Assembly (NCBI RefSeq): GCF_003334255.1
Contig: NZ_QOWU01000046.1
Source of the DNA: Escherichia coli
GTDB lineage: Bacteria > Pseudomonadota > Gammaproteobacteria > Enterobacterales > Enterobacteriaceae
Direction: 5' to 3' (one strand)
DNA: 43,525 bases
Under the pieces are notes generated by a model that saw nothing but the letters and a program-made list of their open reading frames with translations, was not told where the DNA came from and did not search any database. Position 1 is the first letter of the stretch, and each line of letters opens with the position of its first letter. A program made the position numbers and the translations under genes. Below, in pieces: positions 43,107 to 43,126 of this stretch.

Positions 43107-43126
43107 TTAGGATTTTGTTATTTAAA
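43107..43126. promoter_or_regulatory. GAD box (GadE/GadX-responsive element) upstream of gadB
   Basis: Exact 20-mer TTAGGATTTTGTTATTTAAA, the published GAD-box consensus, about 80-100 bp upstream of the gadB start codon. Confidence 0.8.

Follow-up and report, generated by a model that had tools for sequence, protein, structure and literature searches.

The window, by which we mean the whole 43,525-nucleotide stretch of Escherichia coli DNA analyzed here, is a K-12-like segment that runs ptrR-sad-glsB...lsr operon...hipBA...ydeP-safA-ydeO...yddAB-pqqL-gadB, and its aligned parts are approximately 99.95% identical to a K-12 relative. The 5' part of gadB, encoding glutamate decarboxylase beta, lies at 43206..43525 on the + strand (106 codons plus 2 nt) and ends with the window, so a preliminary description of this DNA was right that the right-hand end enters the glutamate-dependent acid-resistance locus. 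Codons 1 to 106 encode a product 100% identical to residues 1 to 106 of GadB 1PMM (E = 1.6e-67), seven other entries match likewise, and five N-terminal positions set the translation apart from GadA (1XEY), which identifies the gene as gadB and not gadA. That the downstream open reading frame encodes glutamate decarboxylase, as the same description had it, thus holds for these 106 codons directly and for full-length gadB-gadC only by way of matching K-12 genomes. The last 679 bp of the window have matches in 5,426/5,426 complete E. coli genomes and are 100% identical to several strains, a K-12 MG1655 derivative among them. The feature is annotated gadB in each of the 24 listed genomes whose match covers the full 679-bp query, and in the K-12 relative the locus order is yddB-pqqL-gadB-gadC, with both gadB and gadC full-length.

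Upstream of gadB lies pqqL, whose annotation was transferred from the K-12 relative. A terminator-like hairpin at 42851..42875 (+), 5 nt past the pqqL stop codon and followed immediately by AUUUU, sets pqqL apart from the gadB control region. The hairpin has a 10-bp stem and a folding energy of -18.6 kcal/mol (z = -5.46), which none of 200 shuffled sequences could equal, and it was missed by a simple terminator scan because its T-run is short. A generic sigma-70 and terminator scan of positions 42700-43525 missed the gadB promoter; as the hexamers TTGCTT and TACTTT fall below the threshold of that scan, its silence is uninformative. No RNA family was found by Rfam at the gathering threshold anywhere in the window.

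Within this control region, the 20-mer TTAGGATTTTGTTATTTAAA was read in the window sequence at 43107-43126 (+) with no mismatches, 79 nt from the gadB ATG at 43206. A 20-bp cis element of the gad genes was reportedly described by Castanie-Cornet and Foster in 2001, and the GAD box is said to have been recognized as the GadE site by Ma et al. in 2003. The 20-mer in the window is the same as the published GadE site TTAGGAttTTgTTATTTAAa, which is quoted as an earlier characterized asymmetric GadE-binding site (PMC4918353). In published work, the GAD box is a 20-bp element whose center lies 63 bp ahead of the transcription starts of gadA and gadBC, with 16 bp between it and the downstream -35 element (PMC2887963). 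The claim of an exact GAD box upstream of gadB is therefore upheld in sequence, coordinates, position, and gene. Even when up to three mismatches are allowed on both strands, the 20-mer has one match in the whole window, compared to a mean of 0.01 expected by chance from dinucleotide-preserving shuffles.

The remaining promoter elements fall where the literature would place them. The published labels of the primers gadB-173 (AATAACAGCATAAAACA, which begins at 43007) and gadB+77 (whose reverse complement ends at 43255) put the gadB transcription start (+1) at 43179..43180 (+), within 1 nt (PMC3050690), and thereby the center of the GAD box at -62.5 to -63.5. The -35 hexamer TTGCTT is found at 43143..43148 (+), 16 bp downstream of the GAD box, as published for gadA and gadB (PMC2887963). 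After a 17-bp spacer, the -10 hexamer TACTTT, with a C before it, occupies 43166..43171 (+), a position that fits the start site at 43179/43180. Just upstream of the -10 hexamer is a putative RcsB (repressor) box beginning CGATAAATCC at 43156..43165 (+), the extent of which we infer; its 3' limit is approximate and may extend into the -10. This RcsB box was described as a low-affinity second site that is kept in gadB with a C replacing the G at its left end (PMC2887963). In our alignment, its left end is likewise a C at 43156 in gadB versus a G in gadA, followed by the common GATAAATCC, and CGATAAATCC from 43156 in the window compared to GGATAAATCC at gadA reproduces the published difference. 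A Shine-Dalgarno sequence, AAGGAG, was read at 43194..43199 (+), 6 nt ahead of the ATG, and is invariant in the aligned promoters. Overall, the 20-bp sequence, its placement at -63 and 16 bp from the -35, a glutamate decarboxylase gene downstream, and an RcsB box with the C are all found together here. The element at 43107..43126 (+), a predicted 20-bp GadE-RcsB heterodimer site that matches the published one exactly, is almost certainly the GAD box of the gadBC promoter in a K-12-like Escherichia coli. It is an already known element in its usual place and, as such, ordinary.

Compared with the gadBC promoter of K-12, the window has the same 20 bp, spacing, center at about -63, gadB-specific C, and pqqL-gadB context, and the element itself is without any difference. 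Elsewhere, 13 substitutions and three single-base gaps separate the window from K-12 MG1655 derivatives, along with two deletions and an IS1. The window opens within the right end of that IS1 (positions 1-76, ...GGTGGAGCTGCATGACAAAGTCATCGGGCATTATCTGAACATAAAACACTATCAATAAGTTGGAGTCATTACC), which abuts ptrR on its 3' side, the place occupied by yneK in K-12; GGTGGAGCTGCATGACAAAGTCATCGGGCATTATCTGAACATAAAACACTATCAATAAGTTGGAGTCATTACC is recognizable as the IS1 end, and IS1 transposase annotations under the matches agree. An IS1 beside ptrR was found in 2/5,426 complete E. coli genomes, which are 95.6% identical across the junction. At approximately 6905-6909, inside yneE (bestrophin-family), a 91-bp deletion relative to K-12 is flanked by a TTTTC direct repeat; the deletion frameshifts yneE and leaves a 216-amino-acid open reading frame at 6963-7613. 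Its junction occurs in 0/5,426 complete E. coli genomes, and the deletion is accordingly either private to the source or an artifact of assembly or editing. The second deletion, of 469 bp relative to K-12 at approximately 25210-25211 between hipA and ydeT, takes the 3' part of a helix-turn-helix pseudogene fragment together with sequence upstream of the truncated usher ydeT, and its junction was likewise found in 0/5,426 complete genomes; it, too, may be an assembly error. At 17635-23055 (+), the window encodes an ECSE_1600-family autotransporter as one intact 1,806-amino-acid open reading frame. In K-12, its counterpart carries a frameshift and is annotated as a pseudogene, and a single G (window position 21589) makes the difference.

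The second glutamate decarboxylase gene offers a comparison that the preliminary description had itself suggested, namely with the gadA upstream region. We made this comparison in the K-12 relative, whose assembly is rearranged compared with that of MG1655 and whose acid fitness island (slp...hdeAB-hdeD-gadE-mdtEF-gadW-gadX-gadA) includes gadE. The identical 20-mer is present at 13170-13189 of the stretch taken from that genome, here too with 79 nt between it and the gadA ATG. The gadA promoter also has the same -35, -10, and RcsB core GATAAATCC as gadB in the window, and the core promoters and leaders of the two genes are similar. The flanks of the box, in contrast, are unrelated: only 2/16 positions of the spacer between box and -35 are the same between K-12 gadA and window gadB, and upstream of the box the alignment of these two sequences contains no recognizable homology.

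This arrangement bears on whether the identity of the two boxes reflects selection on a binding site or is merely a by-product of gene conversion between the paralogues. The coding regions and proximal promoters of gadA and gadB are very similar, which fits recurrent exchange, but a conversion tract would not skip the spacer, in which 2/16 positions agree, and the sequence upstream of the box has no recognizable homology. The divergent flanks thus disfavor simple gene conversion as the cause of the box identity. Mutation of the GAD box at gadA, moreover, abolishes both RcsB/GadE binding and activation by GadE (PMC2887963), and we consider gene conversion an extremely improbable explanation relative to selection on the binding site.

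The box is also conserved well beyond the two K-12 promoters. We picked eight E. coli strains across the 93.7-99.0% identity range of the 679-bp search, without reference to the box, and all eight carry the exact GAD box. A 40-mer centered on the box has matches in 5,372 of the 5,426 complete E. coli genomes (3,812 at an identity of at least 99%), and among the 40-mer matches listed, every alignment spans the box fully. In sampled strains, single mismatches fell at flank position 43099 or within the 3 bases that follow the box. Across 18 gadA and gadB promoters, a set that includes the eight E. coli strains, all 20 columns of the box and all 6 of the -10 hexamer are invariant, compared to 0/20 in the upstream 20 nt and 1/16 in the 16-nt spacer; the non-E. 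coli loci were retrieved by exact box match, so that their box invariance holds by construction, while the constant position and the divergent flanks do not.

An exact-match scan of one genome per species (100,044 species) located the 20-mer at 11 places, 8 of which are in Escherichia: E. coli (two representatives, with both paralogues), E. albertii, E. whittamii, and Escherichia sp. E1V33. In each of these eight copies, 79-80 nt separate the 20-mer from the downstream ATG of a gadA- or gadB-type gene. The remaining three places fall within coding sequence of unrelated metagenome bins (Lentisphaeria and Bacteroidales) and are chance matches. These three copies, together with the base composition of the gadB intergenic region (30% G+C versus 47% in the window), would be the grounds for reading the element at 43107-43126 as a functionless A+T-rich match that arose by chance in A+T-rich intergenic DNA. 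That reading is scarcely conceivable, however, given that chance would yield 0.01 matches in the window with as many as three mismatches allowed, that in several Escherichia species the element keeps the same place with respect to the -35 and the ATG in front of both gadA and gadB, and that binding and mutational data have been published for it (PMC2887963, PMC4918353).

The preliminary description took the intact box to be consistent with intact control by GadE, GadX, and GadW. The GadE part of this statement stands, whereas the GadX/GadW part has to be restricted, since the box is a GadE-RcsB site and the GadX peaks lie elsewhere. The GAD box is not bound by GadE alone but by the RcsB/GadE heterodimer, for which the apparent constant is approximately 10 nM; this was established on the gadA promoter with footprints, gel shifts, and point mutants and is carried over to gadB by sequence identity (Castanie-Cornet et al., 2010; PMC2887963). 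At gadBC, the GadE ChIP-exo peak is centered at -62.5 with an activating regulatory mode (PMC4918353), which by the primer-derived start maps to about 43101-43133 and encloses the GAD box. Expression data point in the same direction: at pH 5.5, gadB falls from 2,532 to 29 FPKM in a gadE deletion (log2 -6.44, ~87-fold), compared to a fall from 2,532 to 1,670 FPKM in a gadX deletion (log2 -0.60, ~1.5-fold) (PMC4918353).

GadX and GadW, which are of the AraC family and not, as GadE is, of the LuxR family, have sites with another sequence at another position in the same control region, and the GAD box is no member of that group. Their binding sites are reportedly 42 bp long (Tramonti et al., 2008). 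A GadX/GadW-type motif, AGGTCTGATTTTTACGTGAT, lies at 42959..42978 (+) with one mismatch to the ChIP-exo consensus AKGKCTGWTWTTWWYMYVAK, a consensus with 2 matches in the window versus 0.12 expected. The motif sits at approximately -221 to -202 from the gadB start, a span covered by the GadX peaks published for -184 and -225, and is kept in the eight diverse E. coli strains. We regard it as a putative upstream GadX/GadW activator site that is separate from the GAD box. For gadBC, the published ChIP-exo tables give GadX peaks at -184, -225, and +66 and none for GadW (PMC4918353 supplement); at gadA, the GadX peaks are at -106 and -127.5 instead (PMC4918353 supplement). These GadX/GadW positions rest on ChIP-exo data and a review-type figure legend.

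Could the 20-mer itself be a direct GadX/GadW site, and so report control by these AraC-family regulators rather than by GadE? Gel shifts show binding of GadX to promoter fragments of gadA and gadB (PMC3050690), and in vitro GadX/GadW sites at gadA and gadBC have been cited (PMC2887963, its reference 33). However, positions 43107-43126 have no match to AKGKCTGWTWTTWWYMYVAK within two mismatches, the nearest and only match near gadB being the one at 42959-42978, and none of the three GadX peaks falls at -63. In addition, the GadXW, GAD, and RcsB boxes appear as distinct elements in a published model figure (PMC2887963), and the ~1.5-fold drop of gadB without gadX is set against one of ~87-fold without gadE. 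A direct GadX/GadW site is thus very unlikely, and we retain the GadE-RcsB site as our reading, under which an intact GAD box says something about GadX and GadW only by way of gadE, which they control.

Other GadE sites (hdeA, hdeD, gadE, yhiM, and others), summarized by the ChIP-exo GadE 15-mer TTARGAWWWWAAATA, have in common with the gadB box a TTAGGA-type left half that resembles an RcsB half-site, whereas their right half is out of register with that of the gadA and gadB boxes. The gadB box has no match to TTARGAWWWWAAATA within two mismatches, so that the gadA and gadB boxes stand apart, as an exactly conserved pair, in an otherwise loose family. Over the window, TTARGAWWWWAAATA has 6 matches versus 3.3 expected, which is not above chance, and the motif is therefore of no use for finding more GadE sites here. 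One sequence, TTAGGATTTGTAATA at 28723-28737 (-), bears a likeness to the left two-thirds of the GAD box, with 28 nt between it and the downstream ATG of ydeP, an acid-resistance gene of the EvgA/YdeO regulon; given that the parent motif search stands at chance level, this likeness may mean nothing.

All 20 positions of the gadA and gadB boxes are frozen, although other GadE sites are degenerate and the M2 mutation (TT to CC) in the box leaves RcsB/GadE binding in vitro just slightly weaker (PMC2887963). This raises a small chance, which we hold to be no better than slight, that these two boxes carry constraint beyond recognition by the heterodimer. Such a constraint could come from a further bound factor, from a higher-order RcsB/GadE complex, or from a need for a DNA shape that counters silencing by H-NS. 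An unexplained RcsB/GadE complex, termed "complex III," has been reported (PMC2887963).

The mechanism best supported for the gadB promoter of the window is the published one, with its binding and activation steps known from K-12. The LuxR-family activator GadE and the response regulator RcsB would bind the box at -63 as a heterodimer, and the location of the box at about -63 and 16 bp from the -35 would allow the bound activator to contact RNA polymerase. In stationary phase and at acid pH, GadE-RcsB would thereby turn on gadB-gadC, which encode glutamate decarboxylase and the glutamate/GABA antiporter, activating a weak, RpoS-type gadB promoter against H-NS silencing of the 30% G+C region. 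High RcsB activity would instead repress through the weaker RcsB box near the -10. GadE would be produced only once gadE is switched on by upstream circuits, including EvgAS-YdeO, PhoPQ, RpoS, and GadX/GadW, so the GAD box would be the final cis element that carries all GadE-raising signals to gadBC. GadX would act from its own sites upstream (about -184 and -225) and at +66, and GadX/GadW would otherwise reach gadBC mainly through control of gadE. On the basis of sequence, the binding, the heterodimer, and the ~87-fold dependence on GadE known from K-12 would be expected to hold in the strain of the window as well. The genes gadE, rcsB, and gadA lie beyond the window. The window also contains ydeP, safA, and ydeO (28765-32325, with ydeO at 31564-32325), the EvgA-controlled branch that activates gadE, approximately 11 kb before gadB; acid-resistance regulators are thus present before gadB is reached.

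For annotation, the GAD box ties the right-hand end of the window to the gadBC operon and carries little weight beyond that. For the reading of acid-resistance control, it provides a useful correction: the box tells of control by GadE-RcsB, and separate upstream GadX sites, putative here, are likewise conserved. Finally, conservation of 20/20 positions amid scrambled flanks makes the gadA and gadB promoters a clean, though not new, case of a binding site revealed by its conservation.
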